Below, piece by piece: positions 1,731 through 58,747 of a stretch of 61,919 bases of DNA (position 1 is the first letter of the stretch; every line of letters begins with the position of its first letter). The notes beneath the pieces are model-generated. The model searched no databases. It worked only from the letters and a program-made list of their open reading frames with translations, and was not told the DNA's origin. The DNA is from a virus (Duplodnaviria > Caudoviricetes). The position numbers and the translations under genes are program-made. The stretch lies in IMG/VR virus record IMGVR_UViG_3300048574_000485, positions 1 through 61,919 of that record, one strand, 5' to 3'.

Positions 1731-3677
1731 TTACTTGACCGGGCAGTGGCCACCGGCACATTCAAGGTTGTCCAGGTGGTCGATCTGCTGATGGTCCGTA
1801 ATCTGAGTGATGGGCCGGCTTTGCGAGCGGAGCTTGTGGTATTGCTCCTCGGTGATCTTCTCCAGGGGAGCTTGAGCGAAGCCGTGTCCCTCGCCGAGCA
1901 GAAACGCGCAGGTTTTGACGCTGCTCTCGTAGTTCTCTTGCAGCCATCGCCTGATGAGCGGCAGCTCTTCCGGCTTGTAGTAATGGGTGCAGCTGATCGA
2001 CTGGTCGGCCCAGTAGGTCTGGAGGAACTTCTGGGTCTCCAACTGATCGGTCACGGTGATCTGGTCCTCAGTCACCGCATTTGGCCCCATGTCGACCGGG
2101 AACTCCACGACCATGGTCTCCGCATCCTCGGAGCCATCGAGCCTGCGTTGCGGCTCGACGTGGTAGCCGTGCCGCCGGCAGACCTCAACCAGCGGATCAA
2201 TGCCGCTGAATCGGATCCGGCGAATCAGATACCGGGCGAATGCAGCATGCATGCCGGGAGTGACGCCGAAGGGCAACAGGCTTAGCGTGCCCGAGGGTTT
2301 CATGGTGGTCAGGCGTTTGGACCGGTTGCAGCCAATCGCCCTGCTATACCGCTCGTCAGCCGCCTCAAGAGCACGGTAGACCCGGTTGAGGATCGGGGCG
2401 CTGTGGAACCAAGCTGCCGCCATCCAGCCGGTCAGGCCGAGGCCGATGCGGCGGTTTTCCGCCACTGCCCGCTGGGTCTCTGAATCGCTGTACGGAGCAC
2501 AGGAGATCGCCTTGGCTGCCTGGTAGAGCAGCGTGGCCGTGCTGATCAACTCGTCCACGTCTGCGATGTTGGGCAGGATCAACTCGCCCAGGTTGCAGGG
2601 CTCTTTGTTCCAGAGGTTAGCCTCCCCGCAGGGGTTGACTCCGACGATCCCGTAGTCCGGTCGGTAATCAGGCCCATCCACCAGCCGTGCAAACCGGCGA
2701 CAGTTGCGGAGGTTGACCAGCCCGTAGGGCTCGCCATTGCCTTGATACCCCTGCCAGAAGTCGGGCCGCAGATCGTCGATTGAATCACAGACGACGCTGT
2801 TATTGGACATCACCCGCCAGTTGGGGATCGGGTGCGTCTTCCAGTTCTTCGCCTCCAGGAACAGCCGGTCGCCTGGATCGCCGAGGGCGATCTCGCTCGA
2901 CCGCCGCACGTTCCCGGCCACGACGACCGACCCGATGATGTTCATGATGTCCACGACATCAATGGGCCTGAGCTTCTGGCCAACCCGGCTCCGCAGGATG
3001 TTGCAGATCTGTTCGATCCCTCGCACCAGGGGCTCGGGGCCGGATGCCGTGCCGCCGAACCCTTCGATCCGCAGGCCTGCATCCCGTATGCAACGGGTGG
3101 AATAGGTGAAGGGCTTCCCGGTAACGAAGAATGCCCTGAGCACCCGCCGCAGCGTCTCGACCCAGCCCTCACGATTGTCAGGGATAATGAAGTCGCAGTC
3201 GTAGCTGCTGACTCGCTTGATCGTGGGGCGGTGCCGAACCGGCGGCAGTGCGTAGACATGCTCGGGTAGACAGCTGACCCCAACCCCGCCACCCAGCATC
3301 AGCTGGTTGAAGGTGAAGCAGAACGCCTCCAGGTCGTCAGCCGCGACGAACCAACAGTTGCAGAGACTGTCGGCTCCGACTCGCTGGACCGTGGAGGTCC
3401 CGAGCTGCCACAAGGCGCGGCCTGAAGCCAAGCCGCGCAGATTGAACATCAGATCGTACAAACGCTCTAGTTCCTGGTCGGTGAACAGGCCACCGATCTC
3501 GACGAGACCGTTCACGGCACGAGCACAGGTCTCTCCCCATTCCTCTGTTCGTCCCAATTCAGGGACCAGTCGGCTGTACGTGCGTTTGTAGGTCACGTAC
3601 CCGACCGGCCCCCAAGGTGGAGTCTTCCCTGCATACTCCCGCAGGAAAGACTCCGAAAGGCCGGTGCTATACCTCAT
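1731..3677 (-). CDS. nrdJ: class II (adenosylcobalamin-dependent) ribonucleotide reductase
   Basis: YKRTYSR, GRALWQLG, NCWF, GGGVG, GNVRRSSEI, NPCGE, TMKPSGT, C-terminal CAGGHCPVK; no beta subunit gene. Confidence 0.92.
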   Translation of the reverse strand: MRYSTGLSESFLREYAGKTPPWGPVGYVTYKRTYSRLVPELGRTEEWGETCARAVNGLVEIGGLFTDQELERLYDLMFNLRGLASGRALWQLGTSTVQRVGADSLCNCWFVAADDLEAFCFTFNQLMLGGGVGVSCLPEHVYALPPVRHRPTIKRVSSYDCDFIIPDNREGWVETLRRVLRAFFVTGKPFTYSTRCIRDAGLRIEGFGGTASGPEPLVRGIEQICNILRSRVGQKLRPIDVVDIMNIIGSVVVAGNVRRSSEIALGDPGDRLFLEAKNWKTHPIPNWRVMSNNSVVCDSIDDLRPDFWQGYQGNGEPYGLVNLRNCRRFARLVDGPDYRPDYGIVGVNPCGEANLWNKEPCNLGELILPNIADVDELISTATLLYQAAKAISCAPYSDSETQRAVAENRRIGLGLTGWMAAAWFHSAPILNRVYRALEAADERYSRAIGCNRSKRLTTMKPSGTLSLLPFGVTPGMHAAFARYLIRRIRFSGIDPLVEVCRRHGYHVEPQRRLDGSEDAETMVVEFPVDMGPNAVTEDQITVTDQLETQKFLQTYWADQSISCTHYYKPEELPLIRRWLQENYESSVKTCAFLLGEGHGFAQAPLEKITEEQYHKLRSQSRPITQITDHQQIDHLDNLECAGGHCPVK

Positions 3678-11654: not shown

Positions 11655-11657
11655 ACG

Positions 11658-11730
11658 CGGCGGTGTCTGGGCTCGAACCAGAAACCCTCCGATTAACAGT
11701 CAGATGGCCTACCCATTGAGCTACACCGCA
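11658..11730 (-). tRNA. tRNA-Asn(GTT), imperfect
   Basis: GCGGTG/CACCGC acceptor, TCTGA-CTGTTAA-TCGGA anticodon arm, TCTGG-TTCGAGC-CCAGA T arm, G discriminator; 1:72 mismatch, weak D stem, no CCA. Confidence 0.75.
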
Positions 11731-13343: not shown

Positions 13344-15296
13344 TTACGCGGCTTCCGCGACCGTGTTGTCGAAAGAGCCAGTCACCTCTCCCAACGTCAG
13401 CAGCTCCAACCTGCGGTTCTCGCGGATCACATCGAGCACTTTCTGGTCAGTGGGCAGGTGGATCAGATCCACGATGGTGCAGCCCAGATTTTCATCCATA
13501 CCTTTGCGGTGGATGCGGTCCTCGGACTGGACCCTGTATTCCGGCTTGAAGGAATTGGACCAGTAGACTGCCATACGGGCCTCGACCAAAGTTAGGGACA
13601 TGCCACCGGACTCAGGGTGGGCCACAAAGGCGACCCGAGGATTGCCCTCTAGGTCCGACCAGTAATCCAGGGGCGCGACTTCGCGGCAGACCTTGCCCTC
13701 ATGGGTGATCGCCGTGAAGCCATGACCGTCGCACCTGACAACATCCCACCCCTCTCGTTGGCAGATCCCTACGACCCGGTCGACGCTCCCGGTGAACCCG
13801 GCGAACACGACAACTCGCCCCACTTCCTCGTTCTCGTCCAGCAGTTCCTTAAGCGCCGCTTCCTTCGGGCAGGGAACCTCACGGGCCATCCGTGTGAGCT
13901 TTGCGACCTCGCCGGATCCATCGCACCTGGGACAGGGCACCTCCTGCTTTTCCAACCGGGAGACCAACTCAGGGTCGAGCAGATCGGTCGTTTGGTAGAC
14001 CCGCCCAGAGTCGTCCGGGTCGTACCACTCCTCCACCACGCCCTTACTGTCGGGGCAGTGAGGGCACTTCATCACGCCATCCGGCACCTCTCGGTATTGG
14101 AAGCCGTCGCTCAGCTCGCGGAGTAGTGTCAGAGCAGTCACGGAATTGGCGGCGGAATTCACCAGTGCCTGGGCAACTCGCAGCGTGCTGGGAGTTGGCG
14201 TGCACTGAACGACGCGATAGCGTTTGTCCGGCAGCGTCAAGCAGTCCTTCTTGTGCTTGACGACAACCAGACCGCGCAGGCGTTCGTAGAGGTAGGCAAC
14301 CTCATTGATGCTGAGGACGAACTCGTGGTAGTCCTCGGGCTCGGTGACACCGTCCAGCTCATGCGGACCTTCCAGGATCGTCATGCCGCAGACGTTGCAC
14401 TTGTGAGCGTCATCCTTCCAGTTGCGGAGAGTCTGTCTTGCTCCCTGCCCAAAATCACGCTCGGCAAAGAATCCGAGCCGCCGCTTGAGAGCCTCCGCGC
14501 TTCCCTCTCGAAGGAAACCGGGCCATGCGATCTCGCACAGACTCCACCAGTCGGCGGGGCTCTTCGGACTCGGAGTCCCCGTCATCAGGATCACGTAGCC
14601 GTCATCGCCATAGACTTTGCGGATCATGTCGGCCAGTTTCTGAGCGGACTGGGACCGCTGTCGATTCCAGGTCTTCAGGCGGCTGGCCTCGTCAAAAATG
14701 ACACCTTGTGGAACCTCCTGGCCCGGTTTCCATTCGTCCATCACGCGGACCAGCGACTCATAGGTCATCATCTCGACACGGAGGGCCGGATCGATTCCCC
14801 AGATACGGAACTCTCTGGCAATGTTCGGCAAGGAACTCCTTGGTCCCACCCAATACCATAACTGTGCCGTAGACTGCTCCATGGTCTCCTGGGCAGCCAG
14901 CGTCTTGCCGACCCCCATTTCCGCTGCCCAGATCTGGTAGTGGTACGTCAGGCCTGAGTCGGCCAGATCGCACTGATGCGGCATCAGGGGGCGACGGTAA
15001 GTGTGCCGCTCCAACGGACGGTCGAACCACTCGTAGACGTTCTCGCCCTGGAGATACCGCAGCTGGAACAGGTTCCTCGGGCAGTTGGCAACCGACCAGA
15101 CCTTCTCGGGTTTCTCCTCATCGAAGCCGTGCCAACGAGATCCGGCCATCGCCTTGATCTCGTCCTTCAAGCTGAAGGGAGATTTCCTGAAGACGATCCG
15201 ACTGCCTCGGAACTCCAGGATCACCGGAACCTTGATCAGAGACCCTTTGGAGGTCTGAGTGATGAACTTGGTATGAAGAATCTGACCTTCGGCCAT
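13344..15296 (-). CDS. SNF2-like SF2 helicase with CxxC inserts
   Basis: EMGVGKT, FDEAS, MTGTP, SGGMSLTL, QSEDRIHRKG. Confidence 0.9.
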   Translation of the reverse strand: MAEGQILHTKFITQTSKGSLIKVPVILEFRGSRIVFRKSPFSLKDEIKAMAGSRWHGFDEEKPEKVWSVANCPRNLFQLRYLQGENVYEWFDRPLERHTYRRPLMPHQCDLADSGLTYHYQIWAAEMGVGKTLAAQETMEQSTAQLWYWVGPRSSLPNIAREFRIWGIDPALRVEMMTYESLVRVMDEWKPGQEVPQGVIFDEASRLKTWNRQRSQSAQKLADMIRKVYGDDGYVILMTGTPSPKSPADWWSLCEIAWPGFLREGSAEALKRRLGFFAERDFGQGARQTLRNWKDDAHKCNVCGMTILEGPHELDGVTEPEDYHEFVLSINEVAYLYERLRGLVVVKHKKDCLTLPDKRYRVVQCTPTPSTLRVAQALVNSAANSVTALTLLRELSDGFQYREVPDGVMKCPHCPDSKGVVEEWYDPDDSGRVYQTTDLLDPELVSRLEKQEVPCPRCDGSGEVAKLTRMAREVPCPKEAALKELLDENEEVGRVVVFAGFTGSVDRVVGICQREGWDVVRCDGHGFTAITHEGKVCREVAPLDYWSDLEGNPRVAFVAHPESGGMSLTLVEARMAVYWSNSFKPEYRVQSEDRIHRKGMDENLGCTIVDLIHLPTDQKVLDVIRENRRLELLTLGEVTGSFDNTVAEAA

Positions 15297-15820
15297 TATC
15301 GCCCTCGCTTGTCTTCAAGAAGCAACGTGTGGTCGTTCGCCTGCCTCCGGCGGTAATCACCCCACACATTGATGCCCATGCCCTCGAAGATTATGAGGAT
15401 CTTGTTGAAGCATGCTCTCACGCCGGTCTTTACGTCTGGGCGTGCCCCCGACACCACGGCGTCTCGCCACTGGGCCAGGGTGCCAGTCACCGCCGCAACG
15501 TACACCCCTCGGGCCACCGTTTCGGCGATGACGAATGGCAGGCCTGCCGCACACTGCAGGATGTCGACCATGTCCCGCTCATCAGCGAGGATGAGCAGAC
15601 TGAACGACACATGCGCCATCAGATGCGGGGAGACAGCCACGGGGGCCTGCGGGTCCCGCATCGCCGCCAGGCACGATAGGAAGCGTGCGGCCTCCGAGAG
15701 TGCCCGTCGACTGGCATCCGCAGCAGCCGCGGGGCTGTAGCCCAACACCTTGCATGCGGCGTCGAGAAACCTCGCGTAGTCGACACTGGGTTGTTGAATG
15801 AGAATCACGTCAGGTTGCAT
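15296..15820 (-). CDS. hypothetical protein, possible degenerate ThyX fold
   Basis: LMAHVSFSLLI and VTGTLAQWRDAV resemble ThyX segments; no RHRx7S signature. Confidence 0.4.
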   Translation of the reverse strand: MQPDVILIQQPSVDYARFLDAACKVLGYSPAAAADASRRALSEAARFLSCLAAMRDPQAPVAVSPHLMAHVSFSLLILADERDMVDILQCAAGLPFVIAETVARGVYVAAVTGTLAQWRDAVVSGARPDVKTGVRACFNKILIIFEGMGINVWGDYRRRQANDHTLLLEDKRGR

Positions 15821-15835
15821 GGAACACCTTCAAAG

Positions 15836-15949
15836 GGACGCTGCCAGGATTTGAACCTGGACCTGAGACCGAATAGCGAGTCCGTACATGTCGCCCGTTG
15901 TCATCGGGGCACCTCGTCAGTCAGCGTGCTACTTACACCACTAGCGTCC
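15836..15949 (-). ncRNA. tRNA-like RNA (114 nt) with enlarged anticodon arm
   Basis: GGACGCT/AGCGTCC acceptor, GTGT-AAGTA-GCAC D arm, CCAGG-TTCAAAT-CCTGG T arm, about 40 extra nt between. Confidence 0.7.
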
Positions 15950-16065
15950 AAATGGGGTCGCTCTGCGGGAGTGTGGAGAAGCGAGACACACCGCCGCTGT
16001 CGGGCGAGCGACCAAAAGACCGGCACTTTGACCTCCAAGTGCATAGGGTTGATTCCAACGACAAA

Positions 16066-16161
16066 GGGCGGGACTCGTCAGCTGGAAAATCCGTTTTCCG
16101 TCATGTTGGACATCCGGCCTCTTGCCGAATTGCTTCGATCGCAACCTGACGAGTCCCGCCC
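16066..16161 (-). ncRNA. multibranch structured element closed by a perfect 16-bp stem
   Basis: GGGCGGGACTCGTCAG/CTGACGAGTCCCGCCC enclosing four short hairpins. Confidence 0.55.
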
Positions 16162-16249
16162 AATCGCGCTGAAGGCCTGTGCATTCGAGGTGCATCATCA
16201 GGCCCATACAAAGCTAACGTAAAAAGGGGCTCCGACCTGTCACAGGTTT

Positions 16250-16984
16250 TTACCGAGCCCGCCGATTCGAGGATGACGCGTCAACCTTTTCCGCAGCGCT
16301 GTCCTTCGCGCTGATAAACTTCGCCACCTCGGCCTTGATGACCTCAAAGGCCGGAATCTGAGCAAACGGAGTCGAGCATTTGACGACCTGGGGGACGTGC
16401 CAAGAGAAGCTGCGAGCCTCGGCCAGCTTGACCTTCAAGGTAGCGGGGAGCGGGCCATGCGGCTGGCGATCCTTGTCCTCGCTAGCAGCGATATCAGCTG
16501 CAGTCAGGGGCAGGTACGGGAACAACTTCTTCGACTCCTGCCGCGCACTCTTGGTGCCGCAGTAGTACTCCAGGAACCGTCCGGTCGACCGCTCGATCAC
16601 CAAAAAGGAGGGGCCGAACATGCAGTGCGACTCGGGCTCCGACGACTGTTTAACGATCCGCCTGAACTCCTCGGATTCGGGGTTGTAGCAGGTGATGATC
16701 GCGTCCTTGTCGGACATATCGATTGCCTTCGGGCGGCGGGCAAGCGGCAAGATGTCGATGCTGTCGCCCAGGTCGATGATGTCGTCGTCACCGTCTGGAA
16801 CGCCGTAGTGACCGGGGCGGATCAGCCCCTTGTTGATCGCCTTGCCCTTCGTGTACAGCTGCAGGCGACCGAGCCAGTCGGCAGATTTGGCCAGCTCGTT
16901 GTAGATGTCATCGCTGCCCATCTGAGTGCTGGGGAGCTGCCCGAAGTCATACGCGACCAGACTGTTAGCGATGTCTTGCATCAT
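16250..16984 (-). CDS. replication-module protein, possibly ssDNA-binding
   Basis: long ORF in the replication operon; beta-rich with aromatic residues; function inferred from position only. Confidence 0.5.
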   Translation of the reverse strand: MMQDIANSLVAYDFGQLPSTQMGSDDIYNELAKSADWLGRLQLYTKGKAINKGLIRPGHYGVPDGDDDIIDLGDSIDILPLARRPKAIDMSDKDAIITCYNPESEEFRRIVKQSSEPESHCMFGPSFLVIERSTGRFLEYYCGTKSARQESKKLFPYLPLTAADIAASEDKDRQPHGPLPATLKVKLAEARSFSWHVPQVVKCSTPFAQIPAFEVIKAEVAKFISAKDSAAEKVDASSSNRRAR

Positions 16985-17036: not shown

Positions 17037-17936
17037 CTAAATCAGGTCATCTGCGGGCAAATCGTCGGATGCGATTTGGCGGCTCCGTTTTCTCACGGCA
17101 GCCTCTTGCTCCTGGACGCTCTGATGGTCCAGGTGCAATACCCATTTGATTGCGGCATACCAAGCATCAGTGAGGGTTTGGCTGTTCTCCACCATCATTA
17201 CCCTAGCCCCTGCGAGGCGGTCCTCCAGCTCACATTCCAGCTCCTTCAGGCCTCGCACGTGGGCCCGCGGTTGGAACGGCGCGGTGTAGAACGCCTCCAG
17301 TTTGCCTAGCCGTGCAGCCTCCATGAACTGCTTCACGACGCCAGCGGCAATCCTGCGGAATTCCGCAGCTGGTTTGATCTTGGCCAGATCCAGGTAGTCC
17401 AGCTGAAAACGCGGCGGAATCTTGGCCAGCATCACTGCATTGCCCAGACTGATGTCGCCACGGTCCATCGCCTTTTGGGCCTCATCGCGCAGTCTGAGCA
17501 GGCCGAGGATCTGCCCGACCCAGCTTGGACCCTTGTGGATCAACTGGGACAACTCGCCAAGAGTGATCTCGGGACGTGCCTTTTGGATGCGGCGAAGCTG
17601 CTTGGCCAGCTCAAGGGGAGTGGTCTCAGGACGCACAGCGTTGGCCTGCAGCTGTAGGCTCAGCACCTGGTTGTCAGAGATTCCATGCTTGACGATGCAC
17701 GGCACCTCCTGCATGCCTAGCTCGCGAGCACAGGTCCAGCGGTACATGCCGTCGATGATCTCGTACATCCCCGACACCCGTGTGGATGGCCGCACGGCAA
17801 TCGAGTTGAGGAAGCCTGCGGCTGCGAGGGAGTCCCGCAGCTCCAGGTACTCAAGCGATCCCTTATCGACCGTGCGTAGCAGAACCCACGGTTCAGTGAG
17901 CTGGTCAACGGGGATCGAGGTAACTTGATCTTCCAC
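17037..17936 (-). CDS. ParB/Srx-family protein 2
   Basis: LRDSLAAAGFLNSIAVR, EIIDGMYRW, QANAVR, HTH ELSQLIHKGPSWV. Confidence 0.85.
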   Translation of the reverse strand: MEDQVTSIPVDQLTEPWVLLRTVDKGSLEYLELRDSLAAAGFLNSIAVRPSTRVSGMYEIIDGMYRWTCARELGMQEVPCIVKHGISDNQVLSLQLQANAVRPETTPLELAKQLRRIQKARPEITLGELSQLIHKGPSWVGQILGLLRLRDEAQKAMDRGDISLGNAVMLAKIPPRFQLDYLDLAKIKPAAEFRRIAAGVVKQFMEAARLGKLEAFYTAPFQPRAHVRGLKELECELEDRLAGARVMMVENSQTLTDAWYAAIKWVLHLDHQSVQEQEAAVRKRSRQIASDDLPADDLI

Positions 17937-17980
17937 GTCACATCCTTGCAGACGAACAAACGAATCACAGGTCCGACAAA

Positions 17981-18012
17981 GATAAGTAGGAAAAAACGGG
18001 CTGTGATTCTCA
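17981..18012 (-). promoter_or_regulatory. phage-specific promoter motif, copy A (leftward replication operon)
   Basis: TGAGAAT-N15-CCTACTTATC on the minus strand. Confidence 0.65.
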
Positions 18013-18078
18013 AAAAAGTTCTGCGATTTCCAAAATTTGTGACGCTTAGCGATTGGGCCAGCAACTTTTTCATTTTTC

Positions 18079-18110
18079 TGAGAATTCCCGCCCTTTTCTT
18101 CCTACCTATC
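18079..18110 (+). promoter_or_regulatory. phage-specific promoter motif, copy B (primase operon)
   Basis: TGAGAAT-N15-CCTACCTATC. Confidence 0.65.
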
Positions 18111-18184
18111 TGTGTCGGAACGATGCGTCGTTTGTTGCTCGGCGTGCTTGCGCCGACAGCTTGTTCCCATAGGAGAGGTAGCCT

Positions 18185-20908
18185 GTGCCGACAGTCACGG
18201 AGTCCATCCAAGATTTCCTCCGCTCCCAACGGGAGCACCACCCCGGTCCCGATCTCCTGGACCGCTGGGGCCCCAACCTCGAAACCCAGATCAATGTCGC
18301 CGCCGATGATGGGGAGCCCGTGCCCGACCGGCGTAACACTTGGACCAATGGGGTCAACAAGTGGTGGAATATTCGCATTCCGAAGAACGCCAAGAGCGAT
18401 CCCGACTTCCAGGACTACGAGCTGCGATGGTCGCTGGCGAAGCACGCCGAGGGTGTCGGGTCGACCGGCTGGGACTGGATGAACCGTCGCTCGGTCTATG
18501 CAGGGTTCGACTTCGACGCGATCACGGGCCACGCGGCTGGTGTCGGCCTCTCCCCTGAACAGCTCGAGGAGGTTCGGCAGGCAGCCATGGCGTTGCCCTA
18601 CGTTGAGGTGCGCCGCAGTACGGGCGGGAAAGGGATCCACCTGTACGTCCACTTCGATGGGGAGGGGATCCCCACGGCGAACCATACCGAGCACGCAGCG
18701 CTCGCACGGTGCGTCTTGGCGATGATGTCCAGCGAGACCGGCTTCGACTTCGCCAGCCAGATCGACTGCTGCGGCAGCATCCTCTGGATCTGGCACCGTA
18801 AGCTGAATGCCGCCCACCAAGGACTGGGGCTGGTGAAGGCTGCCGCGAAGCGGCTGTCCGAGAGCGACCTCCCTGACAACTGGAAGGACCACGTCGAGGT
18901 GGTCGCTCGCCGCCGGGCCAAGATCCGTGTGCGTGCGGTGAACGATGACATCTGGGACCAGTTTGAGGCCTTGGCCAGCTCCCGCCGCACGGCTCCGCTG
19001 GATGAGAAGCACAAAGCCGTCATCGATGAGCTGACGCGGTCGGGGTACTCCACCATCTGGGTGCCTGACCACCATCTTTTGCAGTCGCACACCTGCGCCC
19101 TGCAGCAGCTCATGCAGAATGACAAGCTTCGCAGGGAGCTGGGCCTGATCGGGCTCTTCCAGACCAACTCGCCCGGCAGCGATCCTGGTACCCCCAACTG
19201 CTTCATGTTCCCGCAGCCGAGCGGGGCCTGGAGCGTGTTCCGATTCTCGCCCGGTGTCCAGGAGGCCGAGACCTGGGGGCGAAGCGACGAGGGCTGGACG
19301 CGCTGCTATTTCAATCAGGCTCCCGACCTCACGACGGCGGCCAAGGCGATGGGCGGGGCCGAGCTGGCCGACAACGGCGGCTTCATGTTCGACACTGCCC
19401 GCGAGGCCTTGCGAGTCATCGAGACCCTCGGTGAGACCATCGATCTGAAGGACAAGTTCCACTCGCGAGAGACCCACCTCAGAAAGAACAAGGACGGACG
19501 CCTGGTTGTCCGCATCAAGCAGAACCCCAACGAGGAAAAGCCCGACAAAGGCTGGTCCTCCAAGAAAGGCGGCTGGTGGGAACGCGTCTACAACATGATG
19601 GCTGAACCCCGCAGGAACAACGGTGTCGGGGCGACGGAGTTCGACAACATCGTCCGCGCCCTGGTCTCGCCAGCCGGTGAGCGGGCAGGTTGGGTCATCA
19701 GCCGGGCGACAGGGGGCTGGGATCGGGTGCCCAAGGATGACGCCAAATCCGCCCTGCTGGCCATGGGGCACGCCAAGGCGGATGCCGACGTGATTCTCGG
19801 CTGTGCGGTCCTGCGTTCCTGGAAGACCGTCCACCTGCCATTCCAGCCGGAATACCCCGGAGACCGGCAGTGGAACCTCGGGGCTGCCCAGCTGCGGTAT
19901 CCGCCCGCAGGTCTCCGCGACGACGACATACCCCACCACCCGCACTGGGACAAGATCCTGGATCACTGCTTCGGAGATCTCGACGAGGCGATTTGCAGGG
20001 AGCCGTGGGCACGGCGGGCCAACATCCGCACCGGCGCTCAGTACGGGCTCGCCTGGATCGCCTGCATGCTCAGGGAACCGTTCGAGCCGCTCCCCTACCT
20101 GTTCCTGTTTGGTCCCGAGAATTCAGGAAAGTCCATCTTGCATGAGGCGCTCGCCCTGTTGGTGACCGGCGGGGTGGTTCGGGCCGACCGGGCCTTGGCG
20201 AACCAGAATGAGTTCAACGGTGAATTGGCCAACGCAGTCCTTGCGGTGGTCGAGGAGGTCAACGTAGCCGCCTCGCCGCTGGCCCATAACCGGATCAAGG
20301 ATTGGGTCACCTCGCGAACGCTCTGGATCCGCAAGATGCGGACGGACGCGTACAGCCAGCCCAACACTCTGCACTTCATCCAGTGTGCGAACCACCAGAG
20401 CTACTGTCCCGTGCTTCCCGGGGACACCCGTATCACGGTGGTCTATGTGCCCGACCTCCTCAAGGAGCAGGAAGTCGCCAAGACCAAGATGATGGAGCAC
20501 CTGATCGAGGAAGCACCTCATTTCATGCATACCCTCATGAATCTGGAGCTGCCGCCGGTTGAAGGTCGTTTGCGTGTTCCCGTCGTGAACACCAGCGCCA
20601 AGACCAGATCCGAGGAACTCAACCGAGATCCCGTCGAGACCTACATCATGGAGTGCTGCTTCCCGGTGCCGGGCGAGAAGATCCCGTTTGCGGAGTTCTA
20701 TGACAGGTTCCTCGCTTGGCTGCCTGAGTCAGAGCACAAGAACTGGCACCGGCAGAAGGTCTCCAAGCACCTGCCGGTCAAGTACCCGGTCGGCGCTTGC
20801 ACCAACAACAAACGGTACATCGGCAACCTCTCCTGGGAGCCAAGCACCAAGGTGGGGACTCCTTACGTTGCCATCAACGGGCGGCTCCGTCAGACAGAAG
20901 ACACCTGA
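18185..20908 (+). CDS. primase-helicase (AEP-like primase + D5/SF3 helicase)
   Basis: FDFDA and STGGKGIHLY primase motifs; GPENSGKS Walker A, VVEE Walker B, GDTRI. Confidence 0.88.
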   Translation: MPTVTESIQDFLRSQREHHPGPDLLDRWGPNLETQINVAADDGEPVPDRRNTWTNGVNKWWNIRIPKNAKSDPDFQDYELRWSLAKHAEGVGSTGWDWMNRRSVYAGFDFDAITGHAAGVGLSPEQLEEVRQAAMALPYVEVRRSTGGKGIHLYVHFDGEGIPTANHTEHAALARCVLAMMSSETGFDFASQIDCCGSILWIWHRKLNAAHQGLGLVKAAAKRLSESDLPDNWKDHVEVVARRRAKIRVRAVNDDIWDQFEALASSRRTAPLDEKHKAVIDELTRSGYSTIWVPDHHLLQSHTCALQQLMQNDKLRRELGLIGLFQTNSPGSDPGTPNCFMFPQPSGAWSVFRFSPGVQEAETWGRSDEGWTRCYFNQAPDLTTAAKAMGGAELADNGGFMFDTAREALRVIETLGETIDLKDKFHSRETHLRKNKDGRLVVRIKQNPNEEKPDKGWSSKKGGWWERVYNMMAEPRRNNGVGATEFDNIVRALVSPAGERAGWVISRATGGWDRVPKDDAKSALLAMGHAKADADVILGCAVLRSWKTVHLPFQPEYPGDRQWNLGAAQLRYPPAGLRDDDIPHHPHWDKILDHCFGDLDEAICREPWARRANIRTGAQYGLAWIACMLREPFEPLPYLFLFGPENSGKSILHEALALLVTGGVVRADRALANQNEFNGELANAVLAVVEEVNVAASPLAHNRIKDWVTSRTLWIRKMRTDAYSQPNTLHFIQCANHQSYCPVLPGDTRITVVYVPDLLKEQEVAKTKMMEHLIEEAPHFMHTLMNLELPPVEGRLRVPVVNTSAKTRSEELNRDPVETYIMECCFPVPGEKIPFAEFYDRFLAWLPESEHKNWHRQKVSKHLPVKYPVGACTNNKRYIGNLSWEPSTKVGTPYVAINGRLRQTEDT

Positions 20909-57621: not shown

Positions 57622-58041
57622 TCATACACCTGGGATCGGTGGACGAAGCTGATCTGGAGGGTAATACTTCTTCCGAAACTCCAGATCGGCCCGCTTCAGC
57701 GCCAGGGCAAACTCTACAGCCTCGGTAGATCCTGCGACGGTCTCACGCCACTTGGCGACCAGGGACATGGGCGCGTCCCAGTAGTAGGACACCGCACGGT
57801 GCGATTCCTCCACGATAGCTCGCACCAGATCGCCGCAGAGGATCGGACGCCTCCCGTGATAGGGTCGCCCAGCTGACCCGGAACTGGTCGGCTTGCACAT
57901 TGGCCACGGCTGCAGGGCCTTGCTGAAGCCGGCAACTTTCACGTCCCCAAAAAGCTCGCAGTGCAGGGTGTCTCCTACCTTGCACGGCGGAGGATTGTAG
58001 GGACCTGAGAGGAGAATTGGTGCCCGCACTTTCTTAGGCAT
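57622..58041 (-). CDS. hypothetical protein with HTH-like C-terminus
   Basis: overlaps the recombinase stop; ESHRAVSYYWDAPMSLVAKWR. Confidence 0.6.
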   Translation of the reverse strand: MPKKVRAPILLSGPYNPPPCKVGDTLHCELFGDVKVAGFSKALQPWPMCKPTSSGSAGRPYHGRRPILCGDLVRAIVEESHRAVSYYWDAPMSLVAKWRETVAGSTEAVEFALALKRADLEFRKKYYPPDQLRPPIPGV

Positions 58042-58747
58042 TGGTCAGCTCTCCCTCCTGCTTGAACCGCTTGAGAATCCTGCTCAAAGTCGGAGCGTTG
58101 AAAGGTTTCCCCTCCTGGTTCGTCAGCCCCTCGCCATTGAGGATCTCGGCGATCTCACGCAGGGACTTGCCCTTCTCCTGGAGCTGCACGACTCGCGGCA
58201 CGATAACAAGCCGGTATGCATCCAGAGTGCGTTCGGTCTTCAGACGAGCAGCTGCGGCGCAGGCCTGCTTGGTTCCCCGCAGGTGTTCCCGCCCCTTCCA
58301 ATGTCCTGGCCGAGCCGATCCGAGCTTCACGCCGCGACGAACGGCAGCTGCAAGAGCATCCTTGGTCCGCTGACGAATACGCTTCGCTTCATCTTCGGCC
58401 ACGGCCGCCAGAATGTGAATCGTGAGCGGGGTGGCATGAGGGTTGTCGCAGCAGACAAAGTCGATACCCGAATTCATCAAGGTCGCGATGAACTGAACAT
58501 TGCGAGCCAGCCGGTCAAGTTTGGCGACCACCAGCTTCGCGCCTGAAGCGTGGCAATAGGCGATAGCTTCTTTCAGGGTGACGCGGTCGCCAGTCGTACC
58601 GGTCTCAATCTCGACAAACTCCTTAATGATCTTGCCGTGGTCACTCTTGGCATACTTCTCCACAGTATCTCGCTGGGCCTCCAGACCGAGACCTGATTTG
58701 CCTTGCTTCTTGCCACTAACCCGGAGGAGTGAGACGAGCTTGTTCAT
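58034..58747 (-). CDS. serine recombinase (resolvase/invertase family)
   Basis: LRVSGKKQ, GLEAQR, VAKLDRLARN, EDEAKRIRQRTK, C-terminal SLREIAEILNGEG. Confidence 0.92.
   Translation of the reverse strand: MNKLVSLLRVSGKKQGKSGLGLEAQRDTVEKYAKSDHGKIIKEFVEIETGTTGDRVTLKEAIAYCHASGAKLVVAKLDRLARNVQFIATLMNSGIDFVCCDNPHATPLTIHILAAVAEDEAKRIRQRTKDALAAAVRRGVKLGSARPGHWKGREHLRGTKQACAAAARLKTERTLDAYRLVIVPRVVQLQEKGKSLREIAEILNGEGLTNQEGKPFNAPTLSRILKRFKQEGELTNA

Follow-up and report, generated by a model that had tools for sequence, protein, structure and literature searches.

RNA molecules that adopt the shape of a tRNA without decoding any codon are known from plant mitochondria, vertebrate long non-coding RNAs (lncRNAs), RNA viruses and the Ro-associated Y RNAs. 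For RNase P, RNase Z and the CCA-adding enzyme, the half of the tRNA formed by the acceptor stem and the T arm suffices as a minimal substrate, and bacterial RNase P also contacts the D/T elbow. In the MALAT1/mascRNA 3'-end module, RNase P and RNase Z set mascRNA free by cleavage. In the YrlA group of Y RNAs, the tRNA-like part is internal, and the two ends of the RNA pair into a long stem that binds Ro. These YrlA RNAs have been described as bacterial and phage tRNA mimics carrying tRNA-type modification and undergoing RNase P/CCA processing (Chen et al. 2014, PMC4201824). The so-called t-elements of plant mitochondria, which were located by means of the T-arm motif GGTTCRANYCC, serve as RNase P and RNase Z signals at the ends of mRNAs and coincide with mapped termini (Forner et al. 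2007, PMC1920247), and RNase P is reported to cleave phage and operon RNAs as well (PMC11143913). The present analysis deals with a stretch of 61,919 nucleotides (the window hereafter), which corresponds to the IMG/VR phage record IMGVR_UViG_3300048574_000485 (Duplodnaviria; Caudoviricetes), and with a tRNA-like element encoded on its minus strand between two conserved hypothetical genes, p244 and p174 (Table 1). This element belongs, at the least very probably, to a family of non-decoding tRNA-shaped RNAs, which could well act as cis-acting modules for the formation of RNA ends.

The element had been pointed out in an original prediction as a tRNA-like RNA with an oversized anticodon arm; it is real and lies on the minus strand. 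Both ARAGORN in its default mode and Rfam at gathering thresholds miss it, the ordinary tRNA-Asn of the record being their only call. With introns allowed, as the original prediction had advised, ARAGORN calls the element at c[15835,15948] as a tRNA-Ser(GCU) with a 41-nt intron. Over 30 dinucleotide-shuffled versions of the whole window, this mode produced a single call and the default mode none; it is itself subject to error, e.g., in locus L015, where the call is obviously false and devoid of a proper T loop. The comparison with Rfam, also advised, had a mixed outcome: a search of 401 nt at relaxed thresholds yielded a match below threshold with the mascRNA-menRNA family (RF01684; 29.4 bits, E 4e-4, with a 56-nt local insert), and neither a match at gathering level nor any match of the tRNA model RF00005 at the element, be it at gathering (29 bits) or at E<=10 in the 401 nt. 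No call was obtained from the tmRNA mode of ARAGORN, and no Rfam tmRNA match occurs at the element. Finally, a covariance model of 69 positions (R1), built from six related elements of other phages as seed with the window excluded, aligns with the window element from position 1 to position 69 at 47.2 bits (E ~7e-11 in a 422-kb search) and has no other match in the window; the short members of the family score 80-93 bits as compared with 47 for the window. Taking together the ARAGORN shuffle rate, the mascRNA match and the R1 score, the element is more than a chance match.

The gene order ParB-p244-slot-p174-SNF2, which is part of the replication module and in which the slot delimited by p244 and p174 houses the element, is conserved in about 100 loci, most of them from IMG/VR. 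Five of these loci reside on contigs of metagenome-assembled genomes (MAGs) titled Pirellulales, Planctomycetaceae or Planctomycetota, which points to the Planctomycetota as the host clade; homologues of p174 are also named from Thermoguttaceae MAGs. The p244 proteins closest to that of the window are 63-65% identical, and no near-identical relative occurs among the loci found. Depending on the content of the slot, the 86 loci with a usable p244, some of which are truncated, have been classified as loci without any tRNA-like element in the slot (47, an upper bound on account of the few truncated loci), loci with canonical tRNAs (Met, Thr, Glu, Arg, Leu) at most 1.5 kb downstream (12) and loci with a non-canonical tRNA-like element (27). 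The latter fall into three structural groups. Group 1 comprises 13 loci including the window which, together with L098 and L117 obtained from other searches, represent 12 distinct sequences; the window element shows the location typical of this group, in the p244-p174 slot and on the strand of the flanking genes. Group 2, to which L002 also belongs, consists of 10 loci with a class-II-like layout, and group 3 of four loci whose minimal forms, 48-68 nt long, contain just one hairpin besides the acceptor stem and the T arm, e.g., L017, which folds at -32.6 kcal/mol (z -5.3). Only the acceptor/T-arm half is common to all three groups. In the window and in all five related phage records that were searched over their whole length, the element is present as a single copy and in the slot. 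A scan of IMG/VR with an 18-letter D-arm motif returned six loci, four already known and two new, L117 with a full element and L118 (370-420) with the 5' half of a group-1 element lacking the T arm. Among GenBank phages, blastn found no match with 2 kb around the element, and with the 115-nt element only matches of 17-22% coverage to the T arms of unrelated tRNAs. An exact 20-nt stretch of the window D arm was found neither in IMG/VR nor in GTDB genomes and once in metagenomes (L016); the latter was rejected as a homologue, being an AT-rich chance match with dissimilar flanks.

The tRNA body of the window element consists of an acceptor stem, a D arm and a T arm. The acceptor stem can be read either as 7 bp with one bulged A, the family sequence without the extra A being GACGCUG in L040/L058, or as 7 perfect bp (GGACGCU/AGCGUCC) in a register shifted by one base and starting from 15949, which yields a G-1:C73 pair. 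The T arm (GGUUCAAAUCC) complies with the GGTTCRANYCC motif and, like the 7-bp acceptor, is that of a canonical tRNA; its third stem pair, A-U in the window and G-C in the relatives, has changed on both sides. The D loop, AAGUA in the window for a family consensus AAGCA, lacks the G18G19 of canonical tRNAs. The description of these three arms as intact holds for their presence and is generous with regard to the inserted acceptor A, the D loop devoid of GG and two mismatched pairs in the arm that follows, which are the two closest to the core. Four features set the window element apart from its relatives: the extra A, which separates acceptor pairs 6 and 7, the two mismatches where the arm begins, a 52-nt insert in place of the CAGC tetraloop of L074, and a C instead of a U at position 73. 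No CCA is encoded, as had been noticed from the start, and the 33 tRNA genes listed for contigs of host-clade MAGs have none either, so that this absence is uninformative.

The body of these elements is conserved as a structure. In 11 aligned group-1 sequences, 27 columns distributed over the acceptor, D and T arms are invariant, and the T loop and the D stem remain near-invariant among phages whose p244 proteins are 45-65% identical. Covariation was assessed on an alignment of 11 sequences (10 from group 1 and L002 from group 2) fitted to the R1 structure, in which 96.1% of the cells are standard pairs and 11 of the 19 pairs display changes on both sides. None of 500 shuffles reaches any of the observed covariation measures, and the pairing drops to 31-51% when the 3' partners are slid by 1-3 columns. 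Judging from the compensatory changes in these 11 pairs, the fold is under selection: the acceptor stem, D stem and T arm are maintained by structural selection, and the remaining arm is free to vary.

This variable arm takes the place of the anticodon arm. Instead of the 7-nt anticodon loop on a 5-bp stem found in canonical tRNAs, the window displays about 60 nt, and the homologues free of any insert display loops of 3-5 nt. The arms of group 1 range from a 5-bp hairpin with a 3-nt loop up to more than 100 nt. The short arms are tipped by GGA in L044/L045, L081 and L084, CAGC in L028/L117 and L074, AAGC in L031, UAGA in L059/L098 and a 5-nt loop in L021, whose element (2320-2405), named tRNA-Cys by ARAGORN, also has a tandemly duplicated D arm. 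Expanded arms occur in three lineages, the window (about 60 nt), L023 (about 50 nt) and L040/L058 (about 125 nt). The base helix of the window arm is homologous to the 7-bp stem of L074, whose arm reads CUGACCG-CAGC-CGGUCGG; compared to the short-armed relatives, the window arm contains some 42-52 extra nt, the 52-nt insert being placed within it by cmsearch. The expansions of L023 and the window share GACUGA(A)CGAG at their start and the partner CUCG, and are otherwise unrelated. The motif CUGACGAG, which occurs in the window arm, in the inverted repeat upstream and, with one extra base, in the arm of L023, is found 7 times in the window for 3.6 expected, a count matched in 7 of 100 shuffles. 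All the helices originally recognized in the arm (CUGA/UCAG, GAC/GUC, GAG/CUC and CCCG/CGGG, capped by AUGACAA) are present, most of them in the fold of minimum free energy (MFE); with an MFE of -38.6 kcal/mol (z -0.33), this long arm is no stabler than shuffled sequence.

Since the arms of the short members carry loops of 3-5 nt or are replaced by long expansions, the family cannot decode, and the view of the element as a tRNA-like, non-decoding RNA is borne out by both the bodies and the missing anticodon loops of its homologues. The oversized arm of the window is a lineage-specific expansion, which corresponds neither to an intron nor to an amino-acid identity. The AUGACAA hairpin, which had been likened to a Val anticodon loop, belongs to the lineage-specific insert and is unmatched in the 11 other distinct sequences of group 1; by simple arithmetic, one out of eight random 7-nt loops should combine a U at position 2 with a purine at position 6. 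Similarly, the G-1:C73 combination, reminiscent of the tRNA-His identity pair, is encountered in the window only among the 12 distinct group-1 members: in the family register, base -1 is a G in 2 of the 12, and position 73 is a U in 8, a C in 3 and a G in 1. Against the tRNA-like nature of the element, the original prediction had considered the discovery of normal tRNAs interrupted by a recent, unconserved insertion; the insertion is indeed unconserved, and the homologues are not normal tRNAs. The names delivered by ARAGORN to the members are arbitrary (Ser with an intron, Pro with a 106-nt intron, Cys, Arg and "???(ag)"). Among 20 related loci scanned, a single group-1 member, L059 (38.5 bits), passes the Rfam tRNA threshold, and 15 loci (8 from group 1, the rest from group 2) give mascRNA-menRNA matches of 25.5-33.4 bits, below threshold. 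As the gathering threshold of the mascRNA-menRNA family is 42.5 bits, the window element is not a member of it.

The slot in which the elements reside has an architecture of its own. In the group-1 loci other than the window, a hairpin, referred to as hairpin 1 (CCCUGCCGG...CCGGCAGGG), comes after the p244 stop codon and is followed in turn by UUCU, the element and a U-rich tract continuing ...CCGCUUGG. Hairpin 1, which is conserved in sequence and co-varies (CCCUGCC/GGCAGGG versus CCCCACC/GGUGGGG; e.g., L040 2249-2281 and L028 2243-2275), also occurs directly after the p244 stop codon in relatives devoid of the element, and may represent a 3'-end protection element or a protein-binding site. 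As the element begins 4-5 nt from hairpin 1, no space is left for a promoter between them, and a scan for promoters of the sigma-70 type around the window element found none. In the relatives lacking the element, both flanks align and a GC-rich terminator hairpin occupies exactly its position. On a p244 tree of 86 loci (quick search only, midpoint root), groups 2 and 3 form supported clades. The loci of group 1 are scattered among terminator-only ones, from which very short branches separate them, e.g., L040/L058 beside L036, L035 and L037, and the group requires 9 changes of label, 3 of which are forced by well-supported branches. This interspersal indicates that the element and the plain hairpin have been exchanged as a cassette. 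Downstream, 6 of the 13 listed elements (the 12 of group 1 and L002) end 15-23 nt before the p174 start codon, at a distance of 15 nt in the window and of 21-23 nt in L031, L044, L074, L084 and L002; four further group-2 loci have an ATG in the 22-24-nt range, as counted from the sequence flanks.

With 429 nt, the slot of the window is longer than those of other group-1 loci and differently arranged. Its stable hairpin at 15956..16013 is analogous to hairpin 1 in position and dissimilar in sequence, and its element is followed by CUUUG, a GAAGGUG resembling a ribosome-binding site (RBS) and the p174 start codon. The family as a whole shows 4.96 T per 10 nt after the element, versus 4.14 for genuine phage tRNAs (one-sided p 0.024).

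With respect to their origin, the R1 model retrieves only ordinary tRNAs, at 23-43 bits, from five MAGs of the host clade. Among the eight best host matches that were fetched, four are tRNA-Gln and the others Gly, Lys, Cys and Glu. The host tRNA-Gln and tRNA-Trp genes share with the phage elements the 5' motif CCGUGGUGUAA and T arms such as GUCCAGGUUCAAAUCCUGG, and their D loops contain extra bases, including the GG, that are absent from the elements. The elements would thus descend from a host-type tRNA of this kind that lost its anticodon loop and the GG of its D loop.

As to the function, the shared acceptor/T-arm half and the context of the slot make a cis-acting RNA-end module the most economical interpretation, and the element is accordingly regarded here, with evenly balanced confidence and on the basis of sequence and analogy, as a candidate tRNA-derived module for processing or termination in cis. 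A role in cis agrees with the single copy in the slot, the strand common to the flanking genes and the terminator hairpin located at the same place in the relatives without the element. The element would be co-transcribed with p244, and the host tRNA-end enzymes that read the acceptor/T-arm half would then excise it in cis, RNase P acting at 15948, RNase Z or exonucleases near 15836 and, possibly, the CCA-adding enzyme. The upstream mRNA would be left with a protective hairpin at its end and p174 would gain a short leader. In relatives, the element may also double as the stem of an intrinsic terminator. The "processing signal" of the original prediction therefore stays alive and so does its "mimic", although the decoy for anticodon nucleases which it had also proposed is contradicted by the missing anticodon loop.

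Several observations weigh against such a module in cis. Without a GG in the D loop, the D/T elbow should be weaker, which may impair recognition by RNase P, and the bulged acceptor A together with the two broken arm pairs indicate that the window copy could be decaying. In the window, about 300 nt and other hairpins separate the element from p244, and hairpin 1 has not kept its sequence. Its trailer contains just 3 T in 10 and the T-richness of the family is modestly above that of tRNAs, a contrast too weak to separate a terminator from an ordinary tRNA trailer. An A.C mismatch occurs at acceptor pair 4:69 in 4 of the 11 aligned sequences. The covariation alignment, fitted to the model structure, is biased towards it and consists of related sequences, L002 included. 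Lastly, the p244 tree comes from a quick search and is rooted at its midpoint.

The alternative that survives best, though improbable, is that the window copy, and perhaps much of the family, is the decaying relic of a tRNA gene, possibly Gln-like, whose long arm is junk. The acceptor insertion, the mismatched arm pairs, the 52-nt insert and the R1 score of 47 bits instead of 80-93 would be accounted for in this way, as would the arm that is no stabler than shuffles, the truncated copy of L118 and the duplicated D arm of L021, the 47 of 86 p244 loci without any element, and the predominance of tRNA-Gln (4 of 8) among the best host matches. However, both sides have changed in 11 of the 19 family pairs, one of these pairs showing the change in the T stem of the window itself, near-invariance is observed for the T loop and D stem at 45-65% p244 identity, and the insertions are limited to the tip of one arm instead of being scattered. 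The idea of a relic is plausible for the somewhat damaged copy of the window; for the family, the covariation argues against it.

A function in trans, which seems rather unlikely, would consist of a tRNA mimic, excised, CCA-tailed and stable, that titrates or misleads a host factor recognizing the tRNA body, e.g., a tRNA-directed defence nuclease or modifying toxin, a processing enzyme or a synthetase, with the variable arm maybe engaged in an arms race. The conserved and co-varying body associated with a hypervariable arm and the retention of three structural groups across divergent phages fit such a mimic, mimics of the YrlA type are on record (PMC4201824), and phage small RNAs of unknown function exist, such as RNAC and RNAD of T4 (PMC9697503). 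In a narrower version, which has to be considered quite doubtful, anticodon-less tRNA bodies released by RNase P and RNase Z and CCA-tailed would sponge up a host factor, defence enzyme or toxin, that recognizes the acceptor/T-arm half. The hypervariable arm, including the anticodon-loop-like tip of the window, would then be the diversifying face of the arms race, and the swap with a plain hairpin would mark the phages that do not need the decoy; both corollaries are to be taken as equally doubtful. On the other side, arms without an anticodon loop cannot decoy anticodon-directed nucleases, and the variation of the discriminator and base -1 means that no single synthetase identity has been kept. 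The free swaps with a plain terminator hairpin among near-identical phages suggest that the element is dispensable in trans, and no partner protein is evident, p174 and p244 having no recognizable family.

A functional tRNA with a short intron, either Ser(GCU) with 41 nt or Val(GAC) with an intron at the canonical 37/38 position, is very improbable. In its favour, the removal of 15877-15917 by the intron mode of ARAGORN leaves a 73-nt cloverleaf with the anticodon loop CU-GCU-AU, a call produced in just one of 30 shuffled windows. The same mode gave the false call of L015, and the cloverleaf it draws requires two G.U pairs in the stem and a 7-nt variable loop. As the relatives without insert have no 7-nt anticodon loop, excising the insert of the window would not restore a tRNA. 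A long variable arm is typical of bacterial tRNA-Ser and is absent here. A bulge-helix-bulge intron requires, at the splice sites, a 4-bp helix with a 3-nt bulge on either side, the two bulges being borne by opposite strands; by inspection of the MFE fold, the unpaired CUAU and GGA next to the 4-bp helix CGAG/CUCG both belong to one strand, which leaves no such motif. The splicing endonuclease PF01974 was found in none of five records, the phage and four host-clade MAGs, all of them incomplete (four archaeal controls were positive). With 41-52 nt, the insert is also far too short for a self-splicing group I or group II intron, and no Rfam intron family matches at E<=10. The intron once envisaged for this element is not supported.

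Equally improbable is a phage attachment site (attP) carrying a segment of a host tRNA gene, which the provirus class attributed by IMG/VR and the serine recombinase gene might evoke, since the recombinase is 42 kb distant, the cloverleaf is represented by both of its halves, its stems co-vary from phage to phage instead of matching one host tRNA, the matches with ordinary tRNAs in the host-clade MAGs reach only 23-43 bits, and no exact match of at least 20 nt linking the 3' half of the element to a host tRNA gene was seen at a prophage junction.

Table 1. Coordinates of the tRNA-like element, its parts and the surrounding features in the window
Feature	Position	Strand	Basis or remark
Whole tRNA-like element	15836..15948	-	113 nt; family position 1 = 15948, discriminator C = 15836
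Acceptor 5' strand, GACGCU-(A)-G	15941..15948	-	Alignment; A at 15942 is a 1-nt insert placed by the cmsearch alignment
D arm, stem GUGU/GCAC, 5-nt loop AAGUA, no G18G19	15926..15938	-	ARAGORN drawing; invariant alignment columns
Expanded arm replacing the anticodon arm, ~60 nt	15865..15924	-	cmsearch alignment, MFE fold
41-nt "intron" of ARAGORN	15877-15917	-	ARAGORN intron mode
Distal hairpin, CCCG-AUGACAA-CGGG	15894..15908	-	In MFE and centroid folds; without counterpart in any relative
T arm, CCAGG-UUCAAAU-CCUGG	15844..15860	-	ARAGORN, alignment, covariance model
Acceptor 3' strand, CAGCGUC	15837..15843	-	Followed by discriminator C (15836), C, UUUG
15-nt spacer with RBS-like GAAGGUG	15821..15835	-	Between element and p174 start codon
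p174, conserved hypothetical gene	15296..15820	-	Directly downstream of the element; open reading frame list and synteny
p244, conserved hypothetical gene	16250..16984	-	Upstream of the element; delimits the slot with p174
Stable hairpin ending 7 nt upstream of the element	15956..16013	-	-26.6 kcal/mol, z -3.1, 0/200 shuffles as stable
Small terminator-like hairpin	16023-16042	-	Scan around the element
Multi-hairpin junction closed by a 16-bp perfect inverted repeat (GGGCGGGACUCGUCAG / CUGACGAGUCCCGCCC)	16066-16161	both, read on minus	Fold; MFE -59.3 kcal/mol, z -5.7, 0/200 shuffles as stable
Terminator-like hairpin over the p244 stop codon	~16225-16263	-	Not significant, z -0.7
tRNA-Asn(GUU), ordinary	11657-11730	-	44.4 bits to Rfam tRNA; only canonical tRNA of the record

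The phage of the window, whose 61.9-kb record is 60% complete and classed as a provirus by IMG/VR, is siphovirus-like. Its structural genes include a terminase large subunit, a portal and a tape measure protein, and its replication module PolA, an SNF2-type helicase, two ParB-like genes, a primase-helicase, an exonuclease and a ribonucleotide reductase. The serine recombinase gene is located at 58034-58747. Among the 64 open reading frames (ORFs) of the window scanned, no RNA ligase, RNA repair enzyme or nucleotidyltransferase was recognized. All 290 homologues of p174 are hypothetical, with a function assigned to none of them; no Pfam or PHROG family was found for p174 and p244, no PDB relative with a p244 profile and nothing above chance for p174 in the ESM Atlas. 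The element is intergenic and overlapped by two ORFs, 15941-16207 on the minus strand and 15791-16222 on the plus strand, neither of which belongs to a PHROG family; in none of the related loci does tblastn find a counterpart of the one on the minus strand.

The multi-hairpin junction of the slot has no counterpart in related loci either. Beside one arm of its repeat, 11 nt (16141-16151) are perfectly complementary to the start region of p174 (15808-15818). The tRNA-Asn gene sits between a ParB-like gene and an 81-amino-acid ORF that precedes the exonuclease gene. Further upstream of the element, the divergent intergenic region between ParB (17037-17936, minus strand) and the primase-helicase (18185-20908, plus strand) contains a large imperfect inverted repeat (17948-18143; z -6.3) with 70-nt arms, 77% complementary and 56 nt apart, which may be an origin or an operator; weak Rfam matches resembling miRNA precursors occur at the equivalent relative position in five relatives (L021, L023, L063, L080 and L081).

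Other unusual tRNA-like genes were encountered among the relatives. L056 (2989-3400) contains a 140-nt element with two long arms at 3060-3199 and, at 3295-3399, an insert-bearing gene scored at 48.3 bits by the Rfam tRNA model and named "Gly + 12-nt intron" by the intron mode of ARAGORN. In L089, an "Ala + 32-nt intron" (3261-3364) is next to a normal tRNA-Thr. Arrays of 15 and 12 tRNA genes in less than 1.9 kb occur on the Planctomycetota MAG contigs L105 (G005:C22) and L108 (G004:C76), respectively, and may be prophage or mobile-element arrays. At the other end of the conserved gene order, the homologue of the SNF2-type helicase is split by about 1 kb into two tblastn segments in L002 (1052-3325) and starts about 1.3 kb after p174 in L011/L013 (3986-5270), gaps which suggest an inserted gene, an intein or an intron.

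Non-decoding tRNA-like RNAs used by the tRNA-end enzymes are, as a kind, already known. The phage family itself, with its three groups, its fixed junction and its exchange with a terminator, is absent from Rfam 15 and was not found by literature searching, and is apparently undescribed. A catalogue of structured RNAs from IMG/VR published in 2023 (PMC10690425) mentions tRNA-like motifs, among them two "sometimes tRNA" motifs that belong to other hosts, being from phages of a Betaproteobacteria-lake set and of the human gut; the family motif and contig names are absent from the four of its six supplement files that were searched, and the family may have been listed there before. Three tRNA-mimic families from bacteria reported in a 2026 preprint, skipping-rope, DUF2693-FD and salivarius-1, are characterized there by another connectivity, and no such Rfam family matched at the element. 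What is apparently new here is that a homologous, co-varying family occupies a fixed gene junction in DNA phages, where it is interchangeable with an intrinsic terminator. If the elements are processing signals, phages would shape their mRNAs by tRNA punctuation with degenerate tRNAs, and the natural series that extends from the minimal 48-nt to the expanded 175-nt forms would probe the needs of RNase P, RNase Z and the CCA-adding enzyme. Moreover, the default tRNA finders miss most members or name them arbitrarily, so that censuses of phage tRNAs and claims of "intron-containing phage tRNA" can be misled.

Depending on the known system considered, the resemblance is more or less pronounced. 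The canonical tRNAs (Met, Thr, Glu, Arg, Leu) of more distant relatives share the slot and, like the elements, have no encoded CCA, and the element body resembles the tRNA-Gln and tRNA-Trp genes of the host clade. In contrast to canonical phage tRNAs, the elements have no 7-nt anticodon loop, a D loop without GG, scores below the Rfam tRNA threshold and a hypervariable arm. The YrlA RNAs also possess a tRNA-like domain within a non-coding RNA and also occur in phages, the behaviour as substrates of tRNA enzymes being described for YrlA; unlike the phage element, YrlA genes are situated near Ro60. A Y RNA of the YrlA type was considered for the window and is not supported, as no TROVE/Ro60 (PF05731) match occurs in the 61.9-kb record, 60% complete (two controls were positive); the 401-nt search around the element, at E<=10, gave no match to any Y RNA family of Rfam.

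No Rfam family scores higher than mascRNA/MEN-beta (RF01684), either for the window element or for 15 of the 20 related loci scanned. Like the phage element, mascRNA consists of a tRNA-like body without a functional anticodon loop, located directly downstream of a protective structure at the 3' end of a longer transcript. It differs by its context, a vertebrate nuclear lncRNA, and by a protective triple helix as opposed to a simple hairpin, and no homology is implied. The t-elements of plant mitochondria share still other features with the phage elements: a non-canonical cloverleaf that perfectly preserves the GGTTCRANYCC T arm, a location between coding regions and the inability to decode, some of them being reduced to an acceptor-like stem and a T arm, as in group 3. 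They are organellar, and their ends and non-encoded C/A additions have been mapped, whereas the phage family is known from its sequence alone. In turn, the phage elements are distinguished from the t-elements by forming one homologous, co-varying family, in a fixed syntenic slot, that alternates with an intrinsic-terminator hairpin.

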